A stretch of DNA of 64,000 nt, from positions 3,012 through 67,011 of the forward strand of contig JBDTMI010000008.1 of the NCBI GenBank assembly GCA_039934355.1, written 5' to 3'. The position numbers and the translations under genes were made by a program. The stretch comes from Gemmatimonadales bacterium (lineage in GTDB: Bacteria > Gemmatimonadota > Gemmatimonadetes > Gemmatimonadales > GWC2-71-9). The notes below the pieces were generated by a model that was not told the origin of the DNA, did not search any database, and worked only from the letters and a program-made list of their open reading frames with translations. Position 1 is the first letter of the stretch, and each line of letters begins with the position of its first letter. Below are positions 36,421-53,330 of this stretch, piece by piece.

Positions 36421-36467
36421 ACCGCCACAGGCCGTGTCGGCTCCCGCTGGACTGTTGTGGACCGAAA

Positions 36468-36483
36468 ATGTAAACGTTTACAT
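36468..36483. promoter_or_regulatory. LacI-family operator 2: identical 16-bp palindrome
   Basis: This is an exact second copy. The shared stretch is the 20-nt gaaaatgtaaacgtttacat. The two centres are 63 bp apart. Confidence 0.7.
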
Positions 36484-36595
36484 GCCGACAGAGCCTCGTC
36501 GGCCCCCACTCGAGTACCCACAGTATCCCTGGCGGAATCGGCATTCCGTCCCGGGCGCACCTCGGAGCACCGAGGGCGGGCGCCTCTCAGCTGCC

Positions 36596-37609
36596 ATGAT
36601 GATCACGATCAAGGACGTCGCCCGTCAGGCCGGGGTCTCCGTCGCTACCGTCTCTCGGGTCTTCAACGACATCGATAACGTCCGCCCGCACACCCGCGAG
36701 CGGGTGCAGGCCGTCGCCCTGGAGCTCGGCTACAGCCCGCATGGAACCGCCCGCAGCCTGATCACAAGCCGGACCCACACTCTGGGCATGCTGTTGCCGG
36801 ACCTCTATGGCGAATTCTTCTCCGAAGTCATCCGCGGGGTGGACCAGGCGGCCCAACGGGAGGGCTTTCACCTGCTGATCTCCAGCGCGCGCGCCGAAGG
36901 TCCCTCCCTGGAAGCGGCCCTGCGTTCCATGCGCGGCCGGGTGGACGGACTCATCGTGATGTCGCCCGATCTCGATGCCCTCGCTTCGCGCCGCAGCCTG
37001 CCCCATGGCTTCCCGGTCGTCTTGCTCAACTGTCCGCCCAGCGACGCCGGCCATGACAGCATCGGCATCGCCAACTACGAAGGCGCGCTCGCCATGACTC
37101 GGCACCTGGCGGGTCAGGGGCACACCCGGATTGCGATGATCAAGGGCGCGGAGGGGAATTTCGACGCGGCGGAGCGGTTGCGCGGGTACCGCGCGGTGGT
37201 GCGGGAGCGCAACCTCGATGCCCACCCCACCCTGGAGCTCGCCGGTGATTTCAGTGAAGACGGGGGACACGCCGCGGCCCTGCGCCTCCTCGCCCTGCAT
37301 CCCCGCCCGACCGCTGTCTTTGCCGCCAATGACGGCATGGCCGTCGGCGCGCTCAGCGCCTTCCGCGAGGCCGGCCTCCGGGTGCCCCAGGATATCGCCC
37401 TCGGCGGCTTTGACGACATCCCGCTGGCCCGATACGTAGAGCCGGCCCTGACCAGTGTCCACGTCCCCATCAATGTGCTCGGTGAACACGCCACCGGCTG
37501 CCTGTTCGCACGCCTGCGTGCGGTCGAGCCCATGGAGTCCCGTCGCGAAGTGCTGGCCACGACACTCGTCGTGCGGCGCTCCTGCGGCGCGCAGGGTGGA
37601 CCGGGCTGA
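36596..37609 (+). CDS. LacI-family transcriptional regulator
   Basis: The HTH is MITIKDVARQAGVSVATVSRVFN, followed by a periplasmic-binding-protein-like sugar-binding core. Confidence 0.9.
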   Translation: MMITIKDVARQAGVSVATVSRVFNDIDNVRPHTRERVQAVALELGYSPHGTARSLITSRTHTLGMLLPDLYGEFFSEVIRGVDQAAQREGFHLLISSARAEGPSLEAALRSMRGRVDGLIVMSPDLDALASRRSLPHGFPVVLLNCPPSDAGHDSIGIANYEGALAMTRHLAGQGHTRIAMIKGAEGNFDAAERLRGYRAVVRERNLDAHPTLELAGDFSEDGGHAAALRLLALHPRPTAVFAANDGMAVGALSAFREAGLRVPQDIALGGFDDIPLARYVEPALTSVHVPINVLGEHATGCLFARLRAVEPMESRREVLATTLVVRRSCGAQGGPG

Positions 37610-37649
37610 CGCCCGGTCCCGCATTCAACATCCCACGGAGGGAAGTGTC

Positions 37650-40600
37650 ATGGTGACTCGTAATTGTATGTGCCTCCTGCGCGCGGCCTTGGTGGTTCTG
37701 GGCCTGGGCTTCCTGGTAAGCCCCGCCGTGCAGGCGCAGACCAGCACCGGCGGCATTCGCGGCTATGTCACGGTCGATTCGACCGGGGCGGCGGTGTCCG
37801 CAGCGGAAATCCAGGCCCGCAATGTCAGCAGCGGCGTCACCCGCACCACGACCAGCCGGGATGACGGCTCCTACAACCTGCCGGGTCTCGTTCCCTCGAC
37901 CTACGAACTCACGGTCCGCCACATCGGAATGGCGGCATCGAGCCGTCGGGTCGTCGTCCAGATCGGCGCCACCGCGCTGCAGAACTTTGCCATGGGTGAA
38001 CGGGTGGTGGAAGTCGAGGAGATCACGGTGACGGCGGCACCGGTACCGGAAACCCGGACGTCGGAAGTGGCCACCAATATCACCTCGGCGCAGATCGAGG
38101 CGTTGCCGAGCGCCAGTCGCAACTTCCTCGACCTCGCGGCGCTGGCGCCCGGGGTGACGGCGACGGAAGATCGAGTCAATGGAGGAAATCGGACATTCCA
38201 GGGCGGTGGTTCGAGCCCCAACCAGTCGAATGTGTTTGTAGACGGGTCGAGTCTCAAGAACGATCTCACCGGGGGCGGAGTCGCCGGGCAGGACGCGAGC
38301 CGGGGCAATCCTTTCCCCCGCAATGCGATCCAGGAATACCGGGTCATCACCCAGAACTTCAAGGCGGAGTACCAGAAGGCCTCCAGTGCGATCATTGTCG
38401 CGACGACGAAGTCCGGCGGCAACGTCTGGTCGGGAAGCGCCTTCACCGAGTATCAGAACAAGGGGCTGGTCGCGGCGGACAGCTTTGACGTCGCCAACAA
38501 CGTCAAGAAGCCGGACTACAGCCGGTACCTCATGGGCCTGAGCGCCGGCGGACCGATCATCCGCGACCGGCTCCACGTCTTCGGCTCCTTCGAGGGCAAC
38601 TACCAGAACCGAAATGCGACCGTCGCCTTTACGCCGCCGGCCACCGGGCTCTTCCCGTCGCTGGATACCGTCAACCTTTCGCAGTACAACGGGGGGTTCA
38701 CGTCGCCGTTCCGCGAGACCCTGCTGTTCGGCAAACTCAGCTACGCCGTGAGCCCCAAGTCCACCGCTGAGTTCAGCCTCAGCAACCGCCATGAGACGGA
38801 CGTGAAGGACTTTGGCAATCTGAATGTCTCGCGGCAGTCGGCCACCAATTATCGCCAGAACGTCGGCATCGCGACCCTCAAGTACAACTACTTCTCCGGC
38901 CCGGTCCTCAATGAGGCCAACGTCACATACCAGCGCTTCCGCCGCTTCCCCTCGCCGAACACCCCCGGGCTGATCTCGCGCATCTACCACTACCCTGGTC
39001 AGGACGCGATCATCGGGAGCAATCGTAGCACGCAGGACTTTACTCAGAAGCGCCTCGGCTTCCGCGACGACCTGACCTACAGCGGATTCCAGGCGGGTGG
39101 CCAGCACATCTTCAAGATCGGCGCCAATGTGGACTTCGTGACGTACGATGTCATCAAGCGCAACAGCGAGAACCCGCTGTTCGAGTACGCCGAAAATGTG
39201 AACTGCCACCCCGTCTGCAACGATACACTCGCCAACCAGCTCCACTTTGACTACCGCACTCCCTATCAGCTCATCTACGGCACCGGCGTCCCGGGACTGA
39301 ACAACAAGAACAATCAGCTCGGTATCTATCTGCAGGACGACTGGAGCCCGACGCCACAGCTGACAATCAATCTCGGCATGCGGTGGGACTACGAGTCGAA
39401 CATGATCAACACCCACTACAAGACACCGCAGAACGTGGTCGATACACTCACCAGGTACAACGATTCACTGCCGAACCCATTGGACCTCAATCGGTACATC
39501 AGCACCGGCAACAATCGGAAGCCCATCACCGGCGCCTTCCAGCCGCGGCTCGGCTTCTCGTACGCGCTCGACAAGGAAAGCAAGACGACGGTCTTCGGCG
39601 GATTCGGCATCTACTACGACCGCTCGATCTTCGACTTCTCAGTGGATGAGATTCAGAAGCTGACTCACCCCACCTACGTGATTCAGTTTGCCCACCCGGA
39701 TTCGACGAACATACCGGCGGGCCAGGTGGCCTGGAATGACAACTATCTGACGACGGATGTCAGTGTGCTGAATGCCCTCGTTGCCAGCTCGGGACAGCCG
39801 GAGGCATTCCTGATCGACAACAAGACCAAGCTGCCGAAGACCAAACAGTGGAGTCTCGGTGTACGCCGCGTGCTGGGTCAGTTCGTCGGGGCACTGACCT
39901 ACCAGGGTCAGCGCGGCACCGACCTCTTCACCTACAACTGGGCCAATATCGACCTCAATCCCGACGGCTCCTGCTGCCGGAGCTTCAATATCGGCGCACA
40001 CGGGTTCAACAACTTCATCACCTCCACCAACGACGGAAAGACCTGGTACGACGCGCTCTCGTTCCAGCTCGATCGTCCGTACCGCAGTTCATCCGCCAAG
40101 TTCGGCTGGGGCGCTGGCATTGTCTACACCTACGCCGAGCGCTCGATCGCGGGCTCCGACAACCTCAACGACCTCGCCGGGTCCTTCCCGGGCTCATTCC
40201 CCACCGCCGGAAAGATTCCAAAGCACGCTGATAACGGTGGCAACGACGAGCGCCACCGTGTTGTGGCCAACTGGATCACCGACGTGCCGTATCTCTTCGG
40301 CATCCAGTTCAGCGGGCTGATCACGCTGGGCAGCGGCGCCCGCCTCGACATCGGCTGCGCGCCGCGCTTCTGCGGGCCGGCGACCTACATCAATGGCGGA
40401 TTCACCCCCAAGAAGTACAATTTCATCATCCCCGGAGCGTGGGCGTACCGTCGCGTCGATGTGCGTGTCCGCAAGGATTTTCCCAGCTTCGGCGGCACCC
40501 GCCTCGGTGTGACGGTCGACGTGTTCAACGTGATGAACTACCGGAACTTCGGCTGCTACAACACCGGTTTCGACAGCCCGACGTCTCCGAATCCCAATCA

Positions 40601-40667
40601 GGGCAAGGCTGGCTGTCTCGCCAGTGATCCGCGGCGCATCCAGCTTGGTGCCGAGTACAACTTCTAG
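37650..40667 (+). CDS. TonB-dependent receptor with an N-terminal carboxypeptidase-regulatory-like domain (Oar-type)
   Basis: The signal peptide ends in AVQAQ. It has the CarboxypepD_reg-like GIRGYV..DGSYNLPGL..YELTV, a plug region and a C-terminal ...LGAEYNF beta-signal. GGAGGGA lies upstream of the ATG at 37650. Confidence 0.9.
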   Translation: MVTRNCMCLLRAALVVLGLGFLVSPAVQAQTSTGGIRGYVTVDSTGAAVSAAEIQARNVSSGVTRTTTSRDDGSYNLPGLVPSTYELTVRHIGMAASSRRVVVQIGATALQNFAMGERVVEVEEITVTAAPVPETRTSEVATNITSAQIEALPSASRNFLDLAALAPGVTATEDRVNGGNRTFQGGGSSPNQSNVFVDGSSLKNDLTGGGVAGQDASRGNPFPRNAIQEYRVITQNFKAEYQKASSAIIVATTKSGGNVWSGSAFTEYQNKGLVAADSFDVANNVKKPDYSRYLMGLSAGGPIIRDRLHVFGSFEGNYQNRNATVAFTPPATGLFPSLDTVNLSQYNGGFTSPFRETLLFGKLSYAVSPKSTAEFSLSNRHETDVKDFGNLNVSRQSATNYRQNVGIATLKYNYFSGPVLNEANVTYQRFRRFPSPNTPGLISRIYHYPGQDAIIGSNRSTQDFTQKRLGFRDDLTYSGFQAGGQHIFKIGANVDFVTYDVIKRNSENPLFEYAENVNCHPVCNDTLANQLHFDYRTPYQLIYGTGVPGLNNKNNQLGIYLQDDWSPTPQLTINLGMRWDYESNMINTHYKTPQNVVDTLTRYNDSLPNPLDLNRYISTGNNRKPITGAFQPRLGFSYALDKESKTTVFGGFGIYYDRSIFDFSVDEIQKLTHPTYVIQFAHPDSTNIPAGQVAWNDNYLTTDVSVLNALVASSGQPEAFLIDNKTKLPKTKQWSLGVRRVLGQFVGALTYQGQRGTDLFTYNWANIDLNPDGSCCRSFNIGAHGFNNFITSTNDGKTWYDALSFQLDRPYRSSSAKFGWGAGIVYTYAERSIAGSDNLNDLAGSFPGSFPTAGKIPKHADNGGNDERHRVVANWITDVPYLFGIQFSGLITLGSGARLDIGCAPRFCGPATYINGGFTPKKYNFIIPGAWAYRRVDVRVRKDFPSFGGTRLGVTVDVFNVMNYRNFGCYNTGFDSPTSPNPNQGKAGCLASDPRRIQLGAEYNF

Positions 40668-40740: not shown

Positions 40741-42174
40741 ATGCACCAGATCCGAGCCTGGCTCGTCCTTCCCGCCTGCGGCCTCCTCCTTACGCTCGCG
40801 TGCAGCGCCAATCACCCGCTCGCGCCCACCATCGACCCGGCGCCAACCCCGCGCGCGCTGGCGCTGCTCGACACCCTGGAGCAGCGCACCTTTAATTTTT
40901 TCTGGGAACGCACCAACCCCGCCACCGGCCTGACGCCTGATCGCTGGCCCACCCCCAGCTTCTCCAGCATCGCCGCCGTCGGCTACGCGCTCACCGCCTA
41001 CCCCATCGGCGCCGATCGCGGATACGTGAGCCGGACCGACGCCGCGACCCGCACGCTCGCCACCCTGCGGTGGTTCTGGCAGGCGCCGCAAGGACCGGGG
41101 GCCGCCGGCATGAGCGGCTACCACGGCTTCTTCTATCACTTCCTCGATCAGACCGACGGCACCCGTTTCAGGGATGTCGAGTTGTCCACCGTCGACACCT
41201 CCCTGCTGCTCGGCGGCGTCCTCTTCTGTCAGCAATTCTTCGACGCTGCCGACCCGACCGAGACCGCCATCCGCGCCTATGCCGACTCGCTCTACCGCCG
41301 AGTCGACTGGCAGTGGGCCCGGCGTGATCCACCGATGGTGAACATGGGCTGGCAGCCGGAGAGCGGCTGGCTGCCGCTCAACTGGATGGGCTACAACGAG
41401 GCGATGCTGGTCTATCTCCTCGCCCTAGGCTCCCCCACCTATCCGATCGAGGCGACCGCCTGGGACCGGTGGAGCGCCACCTACGTCTGGGGCAGCTACT
41501 ACGGGCAGGCCCATCTCGGCTTTGCCCCGCTCTTCGGGCATCACTACAGTCACGTCTGGGTCGACTTCCGCGGCATCCAGGACACCTACATGCGCGGCCA
41601 CGGAATCGACTATTTCGAGAACTCCCGCCGAGCCACACTGTCGCAGCGAGCCTATGCCACGGACAATCCGACTGGCTGGCGCGACTACAGCGACAGCATC
41701 TGGGGACTGTCTGCCGCTGACGGCCCGGCAGACGTGACCTTGCCGTACAACGGCGCCAACCAGCGCTTCTTCACCTATGCGGCCCGGGGCGCGTCCTTCA
41801 CCGAGGTGCGCGACGATGGTACGCTCGCGCCAACCGCGTCGGCCGGCTCGCTCCCCTTTGCGCCCGAGGTGGTCCTCCCCGCTCTTGTCGCCATGCGCGA
41901 GCGCTACGGCGACAATCTCTTCGGGCAGTACGGCTTCTACGATGCCTTCAATCCCAGCTTCCAGTTCGCCATGCCGGTTTCTCAGGGACGCATCGTCCCC
42001 GGTCAGGGGTGGTTCGACACCGATTACCTCGGCATCGACCAGGGACCGATCATCGCCATGATTGCGAATTACCGGAGCGACTTCGTCTGGAAGTACATGC
42101 GGAAAAGCCCCTACATCATCCAGGGACTGCGGCGCGCCGGCTTTCGCGGGGGATGGCTGGACCGGGCGCCGTGA
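40741..42174 (+). CDS. GH144-like endo-beta-1,2-glucanase ('glucoamylase family protein'), lipoprotein
   Basis: The lipobox is LLLTLAC. The motifs FNFFWERTNPATGL, SIAAVGYALTAY, GFFYHFLD, ELSTVDTSLL and GYNEAMLVYLLALGSPT recall the PF10091-type family founded by the Chitinophaga beta-1,2-glucanase. The assignment is from memory. Confidence 0.7.
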   Translation: MHQIRAWLVLPACGLLLTLACSANHPLAPTIDPAPTPRALALLDTLEQRTFNFFWERTNPATGLTPDRWPTPSFSSIAAVGYALTAYPIGADRGYVSRTDAATRTLATLRWFWQAPQGPGAAGMSGYHGFFYHFLDQTDGTRFRDVELSTVDTSLLLGGVLFCQQFFDAADPTETAIRAYADSLYRRVDWQWARRDPPMVNMGWQPESGWLPLNWMGYNEAMLVYLLALGSPTYPIEATAWDRWSATYVWGSYYGQAHLGFAPLFGHHYSHVWVDFRGIQDTYMRGHGIDYFENSRRATLSQRAYATDNPTGWRDYSDSIWGLSAADGPADVTLPYNGANQRFFTYAARGASFTEVRDDGTLAPTASAGSLPFAPEVVLPALVAMRERYGDNLFGQYGFYDAFNPSFQFAMPVSQGRIVPGQGWFDTDYLGIDQGPIIAMIANYRSDFVWKYMRKSPYIIQGLRRAGFRGGWLDRAP

Positions 42175-42245
42175 CGGAGCCGGGCGATTGGCCGGTAGTC
42201 CCACACCCCTCCTCATCTCCACGACGGTGGAGAGGGGGCCGGGGG

Positions 42246-43520
42246 GTGAGGCAGCGGTGGGCGATGCTGCTCGGCCTCCTCGCCGCGCTCTCCTGCGCGC
42301 CGGCGCCGAGCGCTGAGACCGACCTCCGCTTCTGGGCCTTCGGCCGCGAGGGCGAGGTGGTCACCAGTCTGGTGCAGGACTTCGAACGGGAGAATCCTGA
42401 CATTCACGTCCGAGTGCAGCAGATCCCCTGGAGCGCCGCGCACGAGAAACTGCTCACCGCCCATGTCGGCAACGCCAGCCCGGACCTGGCCCAGTTAGGC
42501 AATACCTGGATCCCGGAACTCGTCACCCTCGGCGCCCTCGCCGCCCTGGATTCCCTGCAGCGGGCGTCCGCCGAGATCCGGCCGGAGGAACAGTTCCCCG
42601 GCATCTGGGCGACGAACATCATCGATGGCGCGCTCTACGGCGTACCATGGTACGTCGATACCCGGGTGATCTTCTATCGCAAGGATATCCTGGCGCGTGC
42701 CGGATACGCCGCGATGCCCGAGACCTGGGACGGCTGGCGCGATGCCATGCGTGCCATCCGCCGACTCCAGGGCCCCGGCAAGTACGCCATCTTCCTGCCC
42801 GTCAACGAATGGCCGCCGCAGGCCATTCTCGGACTGCAGCAGGCATCGCCACTCATCGACGCCAGCGGCCACGGCGCCTTTGCCCAGCCGGCGTTCGGCC
42901 GAGCCTTCGAGTTCCTCCTCTCCTTATATAGGGATAGCCTGGCGCCCCCGGTCAGCAACAGCGAGATCGCGAATCTGTACCAGGAGTTCTCCCGCGGCAC
43001 GTTCAGCATGTACATCACCGGCCCGTGGAATCTCGGCGAATTTCGCCGCCGGCTGCCGGCCGAGCTGCAGCACAGCTGGGCGACGGCGCCGATGCCCGGA
43101 CCCACCGGCGCCGCCTCAGGGCTTTCGCTCGCCGGAGGATCGAGCCTGGTGATTTTCCGCTCCTCGAAGCACAAGGCCGCCGCCTGGAAGCTGATCGAGT
43201 TCCTGTCCCGCCCGGAACAACAGCTCCGATTCTACCAGCTCACCGGCGATCTCCCCGCCCGGCGCGAGGCGTGGAACGACTCGCTTCTGGCCACCGACCG
43301 CGAGGCCGCCGCCTTCCGCATCCAGCTCAACCGGACCATGCCGACCCCGATGGTGCCTGAGTGGGAGCAGGTGACGACGAAGCTGATGGACCAGACCGAA
43401 GCGGCGGTGCACGGTGCTGCGTCTCCAGCGGATGCACTCACCGCACTCGATCGCGACGTGGACCGGCTGCTCGAACGGCGCCGGTATCTGCTGGCCCGGC
43501 GACCGGCGGAGTCACCGTGA
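42246..43520 (+). CDS. ABC transporter extracellular sugar-binding lipoprotein
   Basis: The lipobox is LLAALSC, and DLRFWAF..IPWSAAHEKLLTA..PDLAQLGNTW is typical of the family 1 SBP fold. The start is uncertain: GTG 42171 (GTGA overlap), GTG 42246 (preferred, GGAGAGGGGG upstream) or ATG 42264. Confidence 0.8.
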   Translation: MRQRWAMLLGLLAALSCAPAPSAETDLRFWAFGREGEVVTSLVQDFERENPDIHVRVQQIPWSAAHEKLLTAHVGNASPDLAQLGNTWIPELVTLGALAALDSLQRASAEIRPEEQFPGIWATNIIDGALYGVPWYVDTRVIFYRKDILARAGYAAMPETWDGWRDAMRAIRRLQGPGKYAIFLPVNEWPPQAILGLQQASPLIDASGHGAFAQPAFGRAFEFLLSLYRDSLAPPVSNSEIANLYQEFSRGTFSMYITGPWNLGEFRRRLPAELQHSWATAPMPGPTGAASGLSLAGGSSLVIFRSSKHKAAAWKLIEFLSRPEQQLRFYQLTGDLPARREAWNDSLLATDREAAAFRIQLNRTMPTPMVPEWEQVTTKLMDQTEAAVHGAASPADALTALDRDVDRLLERRRYLLARRPAESP

Positions 43521-44401
43521 GCCGAAGCGACCGGGAGACCGTGGCGGGCTGGGCCTTCGTGACGCCGGCGCTCGCGCTCATCACGGTGTTCTTCGCCATT
43601 CCGGTCTGCGGCGCATTCGTCCTGTCGTTTACCGACTTCGATCTCTATTCCATTGCCGATCCGGGCAGCACCCGGTTCATCGGGCTCAAGAACTATTACG
43701 ACCTCTTCAACAGCCCGCTGTTCTGGACCGCGCTCCGCAATACCACCTTCTTCGTGATCGTGGGTGGTCCGCTCTCGGTGCTGGCCTCACTCGGCGCCGC
43801 GCTCCTGGTCAACGGGAAACTGGTGCGCTTCAAGCCGTTTTTCCGGAGCGCGTTCTTCGCCCCCTGGGTCACCACGCTGGTCGCGGTCGCGCTGGTGTGG
43901 CGCTACATCTACCACCCGCAGTACGGCCCGCTCAACGCCGCGCTGGTCGCCATCGGGATCCCGCCGGTCGACTGGCTCGGTGATCCGCACTGGGCCATGC
44001 CGGCGATCATCCTCCTCTCGGTGTGGAAGAATTTCGGCTACAACATGCTGGTCTTTCTGGCCGGCCTGCAGAGCATCCCCGAGGAGTTGTACGAGGCGGC
44101 GGCTCTCGACGGCGCCGGCAACTGGAGTCGCTTCCGTCACATCACGCTCCCCATGCTGGGCCCGACCTTCATCTTTGTCGGCGTCGTCACGATGATCGCC
44201 AGCTTCCAGATCTTCAGCGAACCGTACGTGATGACCCAGGGCGGGCCACTCAAGAGCACGCTGACGCTGGTGCTGTTCATGTACGAGGAGGGCTTTCGCT
44301 GGTGGCGGCTGGGGTACGCCGCGGCGATCGCCGTCGTCCTCTGCCTGTTGACCCTCGCCGGGACTCTGGTGCAGCTCCGGCTGCGGCGGGAACAGCCCTG
44401 A
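43517..44401 (+). CDS. Carbohydrate ABC transporter permease (MalF/UgpA-like)
   Basis: It is a multi-TM protein with the EAA-type loop EELYEAAALDGAGNWSRFRHITLP. The GTG start overlaps the upstream TGA. Confidence 0.9.
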   Translation: MSRSDRETVAGWAFVTPALALITVFFAIPVCGAFVLSFTDFDLYSIADPGSTRFIGLKNYYDLFNSPLFWTALRNTTFFVIVGGPLSVLASLGAALLVNGKLVRFKPFFRSAFFAPWVTTLVAVALVWRYIYHPQYGPLNAALVAIGIPPVDWLGDPHWAMPAIILLSVWKNFGYNMLVFLAGLQSIPEELYEAAALDGAGNWSRFRHITLPMLGPTFIFVGVVTMIASFQIFSEPYVMTQGGPLKSTLTLVLFMYEEGFRWWRLGYAAAIAVVLCLLTLAGTLVQLRLRREQP

Positions 44402-45222
44402 TGCCGCGCCCGCTCCGCTCGTTCCTGCTGCACGTCACCCTGCTCGGCGCCGCGATCCTCGCGGCGAGTCCGCTGCTCTGGATGATCTCCGCCAGTTTCA
44501 TGGCGCCCGGCGAGGCGAACACCTCGCCCCCACCGCTCCTGCCCAGCCACCCGACGCTGGAACATTACCGGGTGCTGTTCGCCAGCCTGAACCTCGGCCG
44601 GTACTTTCTCAACAGTCTCATCATTTCAGTGGGCGGCACCGTCCTCGGTGTGATCATCGTGGCGATGGCGGGTTATTCCTTTGCCAAACTCCGCTTCACC
44701 GGTCGCGCCGCCGTCTTCAAGACGCTGCTCGGCGGCATGGTGGTGCCGGGCCAGGTCGCCATGCTGCCGATGTTTCTGCTGCTGCGCGAGATGGGGCTGA
44801 TCAATACCCTCTTCGGCGCGATGATCCCGGTGCTGGCGCCGATCTACGGCATCTTCCTGGTGCGGCAGTACGCTCTCTCGATTCCCGATGATTTGCTGGA
44901 CGCGGCCCGCCTCGACGGCGCCGGTGAGTGGATGATTTTCCGCCGAGTGGTGCTGCCCGGTATCACGCCGGTGCTGGCGACGCTGGGGGTGTTCACGTTC
45001 CTGAGTGCGTGGAATGACTTCATGTGGCCCCTCATCGTCCTGAGCGACGACCGCCACTACACCCTGCCGGTGGCGCTCGCCAATCTGGCGGGAGAGCACG
45101 TGCTCGATGTCGAGCTGATGATGGGCGGTGCGGTGGTGACGGTGCTGCCGGTGTTCGTCGCCTTCCTCTTCCTGCAGCGGTATTACATCCAGGGCATCAT
45201 GGCGGGAAGTGTAAAGGGATGA
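44401..45222 (+). CDS. Carbohydrate ABC transporter permease (MalG/UgpE-like)
   Basis: The EAA loop is DDLLDAARLDGAGEWMIFRRVVLP. The ATG shares its A with the upstream TGA. Confidence 0.9.
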   Translation: MPRPLRSFLLHVTLLGAAILAASPLLWMISASFMAPGEANTSPPPLLPSHPTLEHYRVLFASLNLGRYFLNSLIISVGGTVLGVIIVAMAGYSFAKLRFTGRAAVFKTLLGGMVVPGQVAMLPMFLLLREMGLINTLFGAMIPVLAPIYGIFLVRQYALSIPDDLLDAARLDGAGEWMIFRRVVLPGITPVLATLGVFTFLSAWNDFMWPLIVLSDDRHYTLPVALANLAGEHVLDVELMMGGAVVTVLPVFVAFLFLQRYYIQGIMAGSVKG

Positions 45223-48200
45223 TCGCCGGCCTCGTGGCGCTCACCCTCACCGCCGTGGCACCGCCCGACTCCTTGCGGCCCACGCTGCTGGACGACTTCG
45301 AGCGGATCACGCCGTGGAGTGCGCATCCGGCGGATGGCGTGACGCTCGCGCTCCGCTCCGGCGCCGGGCGATCCGGTCGGGCGCTGCGGATGGACTTTGG
45401 CTTTACCGGTGGTGGCTATGCCATTGCGCGACGGGCACTGCCGCTCCTGTTGCCCGACAACTATGCGCTGTCCTTCTGGATCCGGGGCATTGCTCCGCCG
45501 AATACGCTGGAGTTCAAGCTGGTCGATCGGAGCGGCGACAACGTCTGGTGGTACACTGAACGCGACCGGCGCTTCGATGGACGGTGGCAGAAGATCACCA
45601 TCCGCAAGCGACAGCTCAGCTTTGCGTGGGGACCGCTGGGGGGTGGCGAACTCAGGGAAGCGGCGGCGGTGGAGATTGTGATCACGGCCGGAGCGGGAGG
45701 CGGACGTGGCAGCGTCTGGCTCGACGATCTGAGACTGACGCCGCTTCCCGAACTCGGTCCCTACACGGCGACACCAGCGGCAGGTGCGAGCGGCGCCATG
45801 AAAGGCCATCCGGCCGCCGCGGCGCTGGACGGCGACACGACGACCAGTTGGCGGGCTCCCGCCGGCGCCACCGCCTGCTACACCGTGGATTTCCGCCGAC
45901 CGCGCGAGTTCGGTGGCCTCTCGCTCCTGTGGGAAGCCGAACACGGAGCGCCTGACTACGACGTGCAGCTCTCTGATGATCGCCTGACGTGGCGCACGGT
46001 CCGCTCGGTACGTGCCAGCGATGGCGGTCGCGACGACCTCGACCTCCCGGAGAGCGAGTCACGTTACCTGCGCCTCGTCGTACGGCGGACCCTCGCCACC
46101 GGCACGGGGTTGCGGGAACTCGTGGTCCAGCCGCTGGCCTTTGGCGCCTCACGCAACGCCTATTTCGAGGCGGTCGCCACCAACGCACCTCCCGGCGCCT
46201 ATCCACGCTACTACAGCGGCCGGCGTTCCTGGTGGACCGTGGTGGGGGTCGATGGCGCGAGGGAAGAGGCGTTGATCAACGACGATGGGGCGGTCGAAGC
46301 CGGGAAAGGCCTCTTCTCCGTCGAGCCCTTCCTGCTCGATGCCGGCCGTCTCATCAGCTGGCACGACGTGCAGGCATCTCCATCCCTCGATGAGGGCGAC
46401 CTGCCGATCCCCAGCGTCACCTGGGCGGCCGGCAAACTCGCGTTGCAGATCACCGCCGTTGGCACTGGACCGGTCGCCAGCTCTTCGGTGATGGTGCGCT
46501 ACCGGGTGGTGAACCACGACACGGTCCTCCGCGCGCCGACGCTCGCCCTCGCGGTGCGTCCCTTCCAGGTGAATCCACCGTCACAGTTCCTGAACACCAC
46601 CGGGGGATATAGTCGGATCGATTCACTCCGGTGGATCGGCGGCGCCCTGCGCGTCAACGCCGATCGTACCGTCCAGCCGCTGACGTCGCCCGCAGGCGTC
46701 ACCGCCAGCACACTCGATGGTGGCGACGTGGTGCAGCATCGGCGACAGGGCACGCTGCTGCGCGCCGAGTCCGCCCACGATCCAGAGGGTGCCGCGTCGG
46801 CCCTGCTCCGCTACCCGCTCTCCCTGGCACCGGGAGACTCCGCCGATGTGGCCATCGAGATTCCGCTCGTGGCAAACGGCATCCCCGCCGTCCCGATTCA
46901 CCGGCCAGCGGCGGTGGATAGCGTCTTTGCCGCGGCACGCAGCGCCTGGCGCGAGGCCGTCACCCACACGACTATCGGGCTGCCCCCCTCCGGCGCGGAT
47001 CTCGAACGGACCATCCGCACCACCCAGGCGTGGATCCTGATCAATCGCGACGGCCCCTCCATTCAGCCCGGCTCCCGCTCCTACGAGCGCTCCTGGATCC
47101 GCGATGGCGCGCTCACCTCCGCCGCCCTGCTTCGCTTCGGGCATCCCGAGCCGGTGCGCGCCTTCCTCGACTGGTTCACCACCTTCCAGTATCCCGACGG
47201 CAAGGTGCCCTGCTGCGTCGATGCGCGCGGCGCCGATCCGGTGCCGGAACACGACAGCAACGGCGAGTACATCTACCTCGTCATGGAGTACTGGCGTCAC
47301 ACCGGAGACCGGCCGACGCTTGAACGGATGTGGCCCCATGTCGTTCGCGCCACCAACTACCTCGACAGTCTGCGGCAGACGCGCCGCACCACGCCCTGGA
47401 CGATCGGCGACAATCGCGTTTTCTACGGACTCCTGCCGGCCTCCATCAGTCATGAGGGCTATTCGGCCAAGCCGATGCATTCGTACTGGGATGATTTCTT
47501 CGCGCTCCGGGGCTTCAAGGATGCCGCGGCCATGGCGGAGTTGATGGGCGACACCGACGCCAGCATCCGCTTTGGCCGGATGCGCGATGAGTTCCGCGTT
47601 GACCTGCTCGCGTCACTCGCGCTGGTGCGGCAGCAGCATGCCATCGACTTTCTTCCCGGTGCGGCGGACCTCGGAGACTTCGACGCCACCTCGACCACGA
47701 TCGCCCTCTCGCCGGGGGGAGAAGAGGCGGCGCTGCCGCCGGATGCGCTGCACGCGACATTCGAGCGCTACTGGCGCGAGGCCAGTGCCCGCGCCGACAG
47801 CGGCAGCACTTGGGAGGCTTACACCCCCTATGAACTCCGTACCGTCGGCGCGATGCTCCGGCTGGGCTGGGCCGACCGCGCCCGCGCCATGCTGTATCAA
47901 TTCCTGAACGACCGAGAACCCCAAGCGTGGAATCAGTGGCCGGAAGTCGTCTGGCACGACTCCCGAGTTCTCAAGTTCATCGGCGACTCGCCCCATACCT
48001 GGGTGGGATCGGATTTCCTGCGCTCCGCCGCCGATCTCTTCGGGTATGAGCGTGAGGCGGACAGCGCCCTCGTCGTCGGCGCGGGCATCGATCCAGCCTG
48101 GCTGGAGGGCGAAGGTGTCCGGGTCCATAACCTCCGCACCTGGTGGGGACCGTTGAGCTACGTCGCGCGCCGGGAAGGTGACGCGATCGTCGTCCAGCTC

Positions 48201-48368
48201 GAGCCCGGTCTGCGGTTACCGCCGGGAGGGATCGTTCTTGCGCTCGTGGTCACCGGAGTTCATAAGGCCGTGCTCAACGGGTCGCCCGTGCCGTTCTCGA
48301 CCGGTGGTGGGGTCCTCATCCGTCAGCTCCCGGCGCAGATCCGGCTTACTTCGTCCATCGTTCCGTGA
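45219..48368 (+). CDS. Large multidomain protein: N-terminal carbohydrate-binding-like module, F5/8 type C (CBM32-like) module and a C-terminal (alpha/alpha)6 GH15-like domain; activity unassigned
   Basis: The discoidin-like segment is AALDGDTTTSWRAP..YTVDF..FGGLSLLWE..DYDVQLSDD..WRTV. The C-terminal region has SYERSWIRDGALTSAALL and a YWDDFFALRG glucoamylase-like helical repeat. The ATGA overlap with the permease sets the start. Confidence 0.6.
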   Translation: MIAGLVALTLTAVAPPDSLRPTLLDDFERITPWSAHPADGVTLALRSGAGRSGRALRMDFGFTGGGYAIARRALPLLLPDNYALSFWIRGIAPPNTLEFKLVDRSGDNVWWYTERDRRFDGRWQKITIRKRQLSFAWGPLGGGELREAAAVEIVITAGAGGGRGSVWLDDLRLTPLPELGPYTATPAAGASGAMKGHPAAAALDGDTTTSWRAPAGATACYTVDFRRPREFGGLSLLWEAEHGAPDYDVQLSDDRLTWRTVRSVRASDGGRDDLDLPESESRYLRLVVRRTLATGTGLRELVVQPLAFGASRNAYFEAVATNAPPGAYPRYYSGRRSWWTVVGVDGAREEALINDDGAVEAGKGLFSVEPFLLDAGRLISWHDVQASPSLDEGDLPIPSVTWAAGKLALQITAVGTGPVASSSVMVRYRVVNHDTVLRAPTLALAVRPFQVNPPSQFLNTTGGYSRIDSLRWIGGALRVNADRTVQPLTSPAGVTASTLDGGDVVQHRRQGTLLRAESAHDPEGAASALLRYPLSLAPGDSADVAIEIPLVANGIPAVPIHRPAAVDSVFAAARSAWREAVTHTTIGLPPSGADLERTIRTTQAWILINRDGPSIQPGSRSYERSWIRDGALTSAALLRFGHPEPVRAFLDWFTTFQYPDGKVPCCVDARGADPVPEHDSNGEYIYLVMEYWRHTGDRPTLERMWPHVVRATNYLDSLRQTRRTTPWTIGDNRVFYGLLPASISHEGYSAKPMHSYWDDFFALRGFKDAAAMAELMGDTDASIRFGRMRDEFRVDLLASLALVRQQHAIDFLPGAADLGDFDATSTTIALSPGGEEAALPPDALHATFERYWREASARADSGSTWEAYTPYELRTVGAMLRLGWADRARAMLYQFLNDREPQAWNQWPEVVWHDSRVLKFIGDSPHTWVGSDFLRSAADLFGYEREADSALVVGAGIDPAWLEGEGVRVHNLRTWWGPLSYVARREGDAIVVQLEPGLRLPPGGIVLALVVTGVHKAVLNGSPVPFSTGGGVLIRQLPAQIRLTSSIVP

Positions 48369-51300: not shown

Positions 51301-52195
51301 GCGGTATCGCGATTATCTCCGCCAGCTCCACGTGGCCCTGAATGACGGCGGCTGGGACGGCGGCTGGTATCGCCGCGGCTACTACGACAACGGCACCCCC
51401 CTCGGCTCGGCGAAGAGCGACGAGTGCCGGATCGACGCCATCGCGCAGGCCTGGGCGGTGCTCTCCGGGGTGGCGCCAGCGGAGCGTGCGACCCAGGCGC
51501 TGGACGCGCTGGAGCAGCACCTGGTCTCGGAGTCCGATGGGATCATCCGGCTGCTGACCCCGCCCTTCGACCAGACGCCTGAGGATCCGGGCTACATCAA
51601 GGGCTACCTCCCCGGCGTGCGGGAAAACGGCGGGCAATACACTCATGGCGCGCTCTGGGCCGTGCAGGCGCTGGCCGAAGCGGGTCGGGGCGACCGCGCC
51701 GCCGCATTGCTCACCATGCTCTCGCCCGTCACCCACGGCGCGACACCCGCCGCCGCGGATCGATACCAGGTGGAACCGTATGTCATCGCGGCGGATGTCT
51801 ACGGCGTGGCACCGCATGTCGGACGGGGCGGCTGGACCTGGTACACCGGCTCGGCGGGGTGGATGTTCCGCGTCGCGGTGGAATCGGTGCTGGGGATCGC
51901 CCTTGAGGGAGGGAACTTCATCGTGGTACGACCAGCCTTGCCACTCGCGTGGCCCGGCTACTCCTTTACCTCCCGGCTGCCCGATGGCAGGACGACGCTC
52001 ACGCTGACGGTGGAACGCGCGGCGGCCACAGACCAGTCAGCGACCAATGGTACGCTGGACGGCCAGGCGCTCGCCGTTGTCGATGGCGCGGTCCGCATCC
52101 CACTTCCCGATGACGGCGCAACCCACACCGCGGCAATTCGTTTTGGCGCAGGCGCACGTGTTACCTATCACCAGCGACCAGCCGCTGAATGCTGA
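48365..52195 (+). CDS. GH94-family glycoside phosphorylase, 1,2-beta-oligoglucan phosphorylase / cyclic-glucan-synthase C-terminal-like
   Basis: [33 protein letters not shown] is repeated at [11 protein letters not shown]...EAFYLRDE. The catalytic-domain motifs [30 protein letters not shown] and [11 protein letters not shown] are present. The GTG start overlaps the upstream TGA. Confidence 0.8.

Positions 52196-52235: not shown

Positions 52236-53330
<1,095 letters not shown>

Follow-up and report, generated by a model that had tools for sequence, protein, structure and literature searches.

What does a large protein of no described enzyme family do inside an operon for beta-1,2-glucan utilisation? 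The question is raised by the open reading frame (ORF) at 45219-48368 of a 64,000-nucleotide stretch of contig JBDTMI010000008.1 from a Gemmatimonadales bacterium (this whole stretch is called the window below). Its product, P0001, is encoded between an ATP-binding cassette (ABC) permease gene and a gene of glycoside hydrolase (GH) family 94. Rhizobia, Agrobacterium, Brucella and Xanthomonas have beta-1,2-glucans, both periplasmic and secreted, with roles in symbiosis, virulence and osmoadaptation, and the enzymes of their breakdown have been mapped only since about 2014. An earlier interpretation made from the DNA letters alone (the sequence-only reading) had seen in P0001 a possible new family filling the role of a missing exo-hydrolase. 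The analysis presented here indicates that P0001 is likely an enzyme of a new family that is exported and takes part in beta-1,2-glucan breakdown, where it probably performs an undescribed step. The new family and its tie to the glucan were thus retained, while the missing cytoplasmic exo-hydrolase was replaced by an exported accessory enzyme, in view of the signal peptides of homologues and the GH1 beta-glucosidase genes beside many of them. The narrower description, an exported glycoside hydrolase of a large uncharacterised family, distantly related to GH15 and serving as core accessory enzyme of a LacI-controlled beta-1,2-glucan operon, falls a little short of an even chance.

The frame is free of stops and its translation gives the 1049 amino acids (aa) of P0001. 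The ATG at 45219 shares bases with the permease stop codon TGA at 45220-45222 (ATGA), and at the other end the TGA at 48366-48368 is overlapped by the GTG start of the GH94 frame at 48365 (GTGA). The motifs MIAGLVALTLTAVA, SWIRDGALTSAALL and YWDDFFALRG begin at residues 1, 625 and 756, so that the frame, the coupling on both sides and the motifs quoted in the sequence-only reading were all confirmed. An in-frame GTG at 45024 was rejected as the start, as it would overlap the permease gene by about 200 nucleotides (nt) and the homologues begin at the ATG. An identical protein cluster (P0002) and thousands of full-length homologues establish 45219-48368 as a real gene and exclude a chance ORF in high-GC DNA. 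A word-indexed search returned more than 7380 homologues, the best of them from Gemmatimonadota and annotated at source only as 'discoidin domain-containing' or 'hypothetical'. An exhaustive phmmer search matched 4868 of 1.84 billion cluster representatives at E<1e-3, of which 1149 reached E<1e-30; the matches are mostly full-length and keep the architecture. At least 599 species-representative genomes carry a confirmed homologue, including Gemmatimonadota, Acidobacteriota, Eisenbacteria, Xanthomonas, Lysobacter, Stenotrophomonas, Duganella and alphaproteobacteria.

The gene neighbourhood ties this family to beta-1,2-glucan. In the window, the GH144 protein matches XcSGL (XCC2207, 8xul), a characterised endo-beta-1,2-glucanase, and the binding protein matches Lin1841, a sophoro-oligosaccharide binding protein; the locus is a beta-1,2-glucan utilisation operon. 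Context was counted by tblastn with the window proteins, in 53 loci whose sequence reaches 6 kb or more upstream and 48 where it does so downstream. A GH144 gene lies upstream on the same strand in 42 of the 53, a binding protein with both permeases in 46, and either GH144 or GH94 is present in 51, which bears out the tie to beta-1,2-glucan genes that had been proposed. The gene order LacI regulator, TonB receptor, GH144, binding protein, two permeases and family gene recurs across phyla, from Gemmatimonadota to Xanthomonas; the Xanthomonas arboricola locus holds an XcSGL orthologue (1190 bits to 8xul) together with a full-length P0001 orthologue of 45% identity. Among 41 sampled genomes of the phylum the gene was found in three, each time with a GH144 gene 4-6 kb away. 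The family gene can be regarded as a frequent but not obligatory partner in beta-1,2-glucan use. The downstream genes of the Xanthomonas, Lysobacter, Competibacter and Binatia loci revealed no further conserved partner.

The same counts bear on the role of a missing beta-glucosidase. Downstream, 33 of the 48 loci carry a GH1 gene, 21 a GH94 gene and 14 both. As the family gene usually coexists with GH1, it is no stand-in for a beta-glucosidase, and this replacement was rejected; the exported state of the homologues speaks against it as well. GH94 and GH1 enzymes work in the cytoplasm. A GH1 enzyme associated with beta-1,2-glucan has been characterised (PMC12369401).

For the location of the protein, the N-termini of the homologues were informative. 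A hydrophobic core is present in 105 of the 117 homologues with an N-terminal extension, preceded by K/R in 70, and the orthologues from Binatia (L045) and Xanthomonas (L081) have classic signal peptides. The family is exported: since homologues carry signal peptides, the protein would work outside the cytoplasm, and a cytoplasmic location was rejected in view of these signal peptides and hydrophobic leaders. Within the Gemmatimonadales clade, start codon and permease stop codon share bases, and the leader consists of Met and a hydrophobic stretch, variable in sequence with its character kept; this overlap of the ATG would explain the lack of a basic n-region. Judged from this pattern, the leader of P0001 is probably a signal peptide and this copy, too, is very probably exported, which fits its two modules resembling carbohydrate-binding modules (CBMs). 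Where the sequence-only reading had seen no signal peptide but only a short hydrophobic N-terminus, that N-terminus is here read as the export signal of the family.

An AlphaFold2 model of P0001 was built on 121 homologues, and secondary structure was assigned by DSSP. The full model reached a predicted local distance difference test (pLDDT) of 95.6 and a predicted template modelling score (pTM) of 0.93, and a second model of residues 310-1049 only (pLDDT 94.8) agreed with it. In order, the model shows a 12-residue N-terminal helix, a beta-sandwich, a CBM32 module, a beta-supersandwich, a linker helix, an (alpha/alpha)6 barrel and a C-terminal beta-sandwich. PF00754 matched residues 191-290 (E 7.5e-13, 49.2 bits against a cut-off of 28.2) and 41 of 45 diverse family members, and the family profile found the CBM32 structures 4zz5/2rva in the PDB at E 1.7e-13. 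The likeness of the first sandwich to CBM11 is faint: residues 22-109 were matched by PDB sequence search, the family profile matched 1v0a at E 0.0024, and only three of the 45 members matched PF03425, at E 0.0019 or worse. The binding-module-like N-terminus, the F5/8 type C segment and the helical C-terminal part of the sequence-only reading were borne out by Pfam and by the model. Conservation is concentrated in the barrel, where 52 residues, many of them acidic, reach a conservation of 95% or higher; no residue of the CBM32 module does. The residues invariant in the 45 members include Y622, R624, W626, R628, D629, E677, D679, H745 and E746, and also D758, D820, E872, R874, E909, D923 and H926.

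Comparison of the model with the PDB by Foldseek gave no close relative, the matches having 10-15% identity and TM-scores of 0.4-0.6. For the whole protein, dextran dextrinase 9ju0 was the best full-length match. This match, and the two CBM-like modules, would suit a non-hydrolytic protein: one that binds or captures glucan, a phosphorylase, or a transglycosylase of the kind seen in dextran dextrinase and the Cgs cyclase. Such a role is considered improbable, as invariant acidic residues occupy the GH15 catalytic and subsite positions, the barrel is far better conserved than the CBMs and the operon setting is catabolic, while the exported location speaks against a phosphorylase.

On the barrel of P0001, no Pfam, NCBIfam or PDB family scored above threshold in searches with P0001 and with the family profile (45 members were searched in Pfam). 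PF00723 (GH15) had no match in P0001 and matched seven of the 45 members, all at E 5e-4 or worse; a search of the whole genome with this model found four other places and not the gene at 45219-48368. The glucoamylase-type model TIGR01577 of NCBIfam gave 32.8 bits against a cut-off of 820.7, and PF17389 (Bac_rhamnosid6H, GH78) gave 21.8 bits, below its cut-off of 24.5. Sub-threshold barrel matches were found among the members for GDE_C (18/45), Bac_rhamnosid6H (17/45 at E<=0.01, best 9.1e-9) and GH15 (7/45). PF17167 and PF06165 (GH94) matched neither P0001 nor the 45 members, while scoring E 1e-115 or better in the neighbouring gene, and PF10091 (GH144) matched none of the 45. Beside CBM32 modules and the faint CBM11 match, the PDB sequence search with P0001 found MmpH 7qsj over residues 634-729 (E 1.5e-6). 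An ordinary GH15 enzyme of glucoamylase or trehalase type, acting on alpha-glucan and merely lying beside the operon, could account for the WIRD motif and the weak TIGR01577 and GH15 matches. It is close to refuted by scores so far under the cut-offs, by the four other genome places that the GH15 hidden Markov model (HMM) finds instead of this gene, and by a gene order that is kept in different phyla and in which stop and start codons overlap.

A distant relation to GH15 was nevertheless detected between profiles. With hhalign, the family profile aligned to a profile of nine bacterial GH15 proteins with a probability of 94.5% (E 7.5e-8); the alignment takes in 365 columns and reaches from the linker through the whole barrel. 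The segment YERSWIRD (Y622-D629) was paired with YRYTWIRD of GH15 and D679-G682-E683 with the QLDIYGE block, while E909 fell on the GH15 general base, the first Glu of YSEE. In glucoamylases the -1 subsite residues Tyr, Trp, Arg and Asp belong to the YxxxWxRD block (Tyr48, Trp52, Arg54 and Asp55 in the A. niger enzyme). The acid segment GIWEVRG of GH15 was paired with SIS-HEG, so that E746 lies in the same loop, not column for column. Common to P0001 and GH15 (clan GH-L) are the beta-sandwich N-domain with the (alpha/alpha)6 barrel, YxxxWxRD, D-x-x-G-E and a Glu at the position of the base; the GH15 structures 1ug9 and 1lf6 were found by Foldseek at about 11-14% identity. The family differs from GH15 in its acid motif (SISHEG instead of (I)WE(E/V)), in the extra invariants E677, D758, D820, E872, R874, D923 and H926, in its two N-terminal CBM-like modules and in a gene context of beta-1,2-glucan rather than alpha-glucan. 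The P0001 family is thus a distant relative of GH15 rather than a member of it, and corresponds to no described family in the libraries searched. Two observations named by the sequence-only reading as evidence against its idea were not made: the GH15 HMM misses the gene and the barrel matches in Pfam are sub-threshold, which places P0001 in no characterised GH15 subfamily, and the putative catalytic residues are present and invariant.

The other known families were compared by fold and profile. For the catalytic part, Foldseek ranked GH94 phosphorylases best (TM 0.51-0.61, E down to 2.4e-18), with GH15 glucodextranase, GH116, GDE and GH78 close behind; in the model, GH94, GH15 and GH116 appear about equally near and the nearest cannot be separated, and the family shares the four-domain fold of GH15/GH65/GH94 enzymes. 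The search for the nearest clan suggested by the sequence-only reading thus gave a distant GH15 homology at the profile level, while the fold did not separate GH94 from GH15. GH94 enzymes have the same order of N-sandwich, linker helix, barrel and C-sandwich, and a GH94 gene adjoins; the family, however, has no GH94 Pfam matches, is exported where GH94 is cytoplasmic, and does not conserve the catalytic Asp of DWND. The hhalign comparison with the neighbouring GH94 protein reached a probability of only 21%, and placed the DWND motif at residues 726-731, which are non-conserved in the family. GH144 (CpSGL, XcSGL; clan GH-S) shares the operon, presumably the polymer, and the (alpha/alpha)6 barrel; it shows no detectable sequence relation and is single-domain (PMC12102758). 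MmpH 7qsj, GDE_C/GH133 amylo-alpha-1,6-glucosidase and GH78 alpha-L-rhamnosidase (Foldseek matches 7vma, 8iwd and 6i60 in this group) match weakly over the first barrel helices, all below family thresholds, and differ in domain architecture and gene context.

Which bond could such an enzyme cleave? GH144 enzymes give Sop2-7 from linear and cyclic beta-1,2-glucan (PMC12102758). Since short sophoro-oligosaccharides are already produced in this way, an additional exported enzyme should handle something else, and P0001 can be considered to represent a candidate new GH family for bonds that withstand GH144. Xanthomonas produces alpha-1,6-cyclised beta-1,2-glucans, and so do many different bacteria according to a preprint from the group behind the characterisation of these enzymes; in that work, joint digestion of such glucans with the endo-beta-1,2-glucanase CpSGL and the beta-glucosidase BtBGL left a 'non-degradable glucopentaose' (10.1101/2025.04.21.649730). 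The profile-level relatives of the family (GH15, GDE_C, GH78) are all alpha-glycoside enzymes of the inverting kind, and cleavage of an alpha-1,6 bond was therefore ranked first, followed by exo-beta-1,2 activity and then by debranching and a non-hydrolytic role. We tentatively propose, at well under an even chance, that the bond is the single alpha-1,6 closing link of these glucans, or lies in a derived oligosaccharide resistant to GH144 and beta-glucosidase. The objection of the sequence-only reading, that an alpha-acting enzyme does not fit the locus, overlooks this link. In the literature searched no enzyme was found for the alpha-1,6 ring-closing bond, and no description of the family or of its Xanthomonas orthologue was found in the literature on beta-1,2-glucan enzymes, new GH families, XCC2202-XCC2212, 3UOR and MmpH.

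An exo-beta-1,2-glucanase, sophorohydrolase or beta-1,2-glucosidase of a new family, trimming GH144 products or glucan ends to transporter size, corresponds to the idea of the sequence-only reading; it is the next candidate and rather unlikely. The tight linkage to GH144, GH94 and a Lin1841-like binding protein agrees with it, as do the fold, which is as near to GH94 beta-glucan phosphorylases as to GH15, and a Binatia locus in which a homologue stands with GH94 alone. Six-hairpin barrels also include beta-acting families. It is weakened by the Sop2-7 that GH144 already delivers (PMC12102758), which leaves no evident missing step, by the frequency of GH1 in the loci, by the alpha-acting profile relatives and by the lack of a conserved counterpart of the GH94 DWND motif.

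More improbable still, and marginally below the non-hydrolytic role, is a debranching function, in which P0001 would take beta-1,6-glucosyl side chains or other glycosyl decorations off the osmoregulated periplasmic glucans known from E. coli and Pseudomonas. Branched beta-1,2-glucans exist (L-beta-G-6-beta glossary entry, PMC11228985), the sub-threshold GDE_C matches concern a debranching-enzyme domain, and an exported enzyme with CBMs would suit trimming at the polymer level; on the other side, BtBGL is reported to strip side chains completely (10.1101/2025.04.21.649730), so that ordinary beta-glucosidases may suffice.

For alpha-1,6 cleavage, the following scheme can be drawn, in which we infer the hydrolase activity, the catalytic roles, the substrate and the compartment in the Gemmatimonadales bacterium. 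The glucan would enter through the Oar-type TonB receptor, and the GH144 lipoprotein would cut its beta-1,2 bonds endo-wise. P0001, bound to the glucan through its CBM11-like module and CBM32, would cut the bond that resists GH144. Hydrolysis would proceed by single displacement (inverting); the general acid would be E746, the general base E909, and Y622, W626, R628 and D629 would hold the glucose at subsite -1 as in GH15. The binding protein, the two permeases and MalK would import the oligosaccharides, to be finished by the cytoplasmic GH94 enzyme, joined in relatives by GH1.

Several observations weigh against this reading. Three sampled genomes with a high-scoring GH144 lack the family gene. 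The leader of P0001 has no basic residue, and its export in the Gemmatimonadales bacterium is deduced from relatives. The GH15 acid falls at a gap beside H745-E746 or, in another alignment, at a non-conserved residue. GH94 beta-glucan phosphorylases score at least as high as GH15 by fold in Foldseek. In the hhalign comparison with the GH94 protein (probability 21%), R628 and H926 align with the Arg of FRD and the His of PH, the phosphate ligands of GH94, and this counts for the non-hydrolytic role. A GH15-type exo pocket would suit a cyclic substrate poorly, and the resistant pentaose stems from an in vitro digestion with a beta-glucosidase, an enzyme that is cytoplasmic in cells.

The family is a conserved, uncharacterised operon partner of a characterised GH144 glucanase in hundreds of species of many phyla; its characterisation would probably found a new GH family and fill in what is left of the degradation pathway. 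The alpha-1,6-cyclised beta-1,2-glucan CbG16alpha is a virulence factor of Xanthomonas. If cleavage of the alpha-1,6 closing link is true, P0001 would be the first known enzyme of this kind and a possible tool to analyse or destroy the Xanthomonas virulence glucan.

The genes of the operon and the parts of P0001 are listed in Table 1. No beta-glucosidase gene is present at the window locus, as had been noted from the sequence: the GH94 gene ends at 52195 and malK starts at 52236, a gap of about 40 nt. At this very point the close relatives L001, L007, L008 and L030 carry a divergently oriented GH1 beta-glucosidase gene, so that the window locus lost GH1 or never had one. Elsewhere in the same genome a GH1 gene and three GH3 genes were found; the GH1 fragment on contig C121 shares only 44% identity with the GH1 of the locus type.

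Table 1. Positions of the operon genes and of the parts of P0001 in the window
Feature	Position	Strand	Basis
LacI-family regulator	36434..37609	+	Pfam; syntenic in 31/53 loci
Oar-type TonB-dependent receptor	37455..40667	+	Pfam CarboxypepD_reg, Plug, OMP_b-brl_4
GH144 endo-beta-1,2-glucanase lipoprotein (MHQIRAWLVLPACGLLLTLAC)	40741..42174	+	PF10091 E 3e-80; XcSGL 8xul E 2.4e-175; lipobox
Solute-binding protein and two ABC permeases	42009..45222	+	Pfam; binding protein against Lin1841 E 5.6e-67
P0001, exported multi-domain glycosidase-like protein, 1049 aa	45219..48368	+	Open frame; P0002; >7380 homologues; AlphaFold2 pLDDT 95.6
MIAGLVALTLTAVA hydrophobic leader, residues 1-14, ending AVA	45219..45260	+	Probably signal peptide without basic n-region
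CBM11-like first beta-sandwich, residues 20-178	45276..45752	+	DSSP of model; weak CBM11 1v0a/2lro matches
F5/8 type C / CBM32 module, residues 186-304	45774..46130	+	PF00754; CBM32 structures
Beta-supersandwich, residues 305-560, like GH15/GH65/GH94 N-domain	46131..46898	+	DSSP; Foldseek alignments span it in GH94/GH15 enzymes
Helical linker, residues 561-589	46899..46985	+	Helix 564-580; faint profile match to GH94 linker region
(alpha/alpha)6 barrel, putative catalytic domain, residues 590-941	46986..48041	+	Twelve helices; conservation; hhalign to GH15
Y622-E-R-S-W626-I-R628-D629, equivalent of GH15 conserved region 1 (YxxxWxRD)	47082..47105	+	hhalign; invariant in 45 members; codons checked
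H745-E746 in SISHEGYS, candidate general acid	47451..47456	+	Invariant; alpha5-alpha6 loop, paired with GIWEVRG segment
E909 in WPEVVW, candidate general base	47943..47945	+	Invariant; aligned to first Glu of YSEE
C-terminal beta-sandwich, residues 942-1049	48042..48365	+	DSSP
GH94 protein, 1276 aa	48365..52195	+	Pfam; 8rf9/8rf0 E 1.8e-267; N-terminus
MalK-type ABC ATPase	52236..53330	+	Pfam

The GH144 protein begins with a lipoprotein signal (LLLTLAC, within 40741-40803), and the long upstream extension of its mechanical ORF (from 40624) is probably not translated. A second high-scoring GH144 is present in the same genome (G000:C9:63588-64298, 267 bits, in a 441-aa frame). On the contig of the window, about 8 kb past its end, a weak PF10091-like domain (G000:C8:75080-75709, 78 bits) lies in a frame of about 3019 aa; similar giant frames were seen in nine other sampled genomes. 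The organism may itself make the glucan that the locus degrades.

Among the relatives, some genes and loci depart from the common form. Three longer family members, P0123 (1578 aa), P0237 (1868 aa) and P0173 (1292 aa), have extra domains or are fusions. In the metagenomic relative L002 (9043-12175), whose locus is also without GH94, the gene is split into overlapping ORFs of 335 aa with the CBM32 and 724 aa with the barrel, by a frameshift, as a pseudogene or through an assembly error. In the Binatia metagenome-assembled genome (L045, 9923-16938), the homologue and the GH94 gene overlap by 4 nt and stand by themselves as a two-gene unit between unrelated housekeeping genes; neither a GH144 nor a transporter gene lies within 10 kb.

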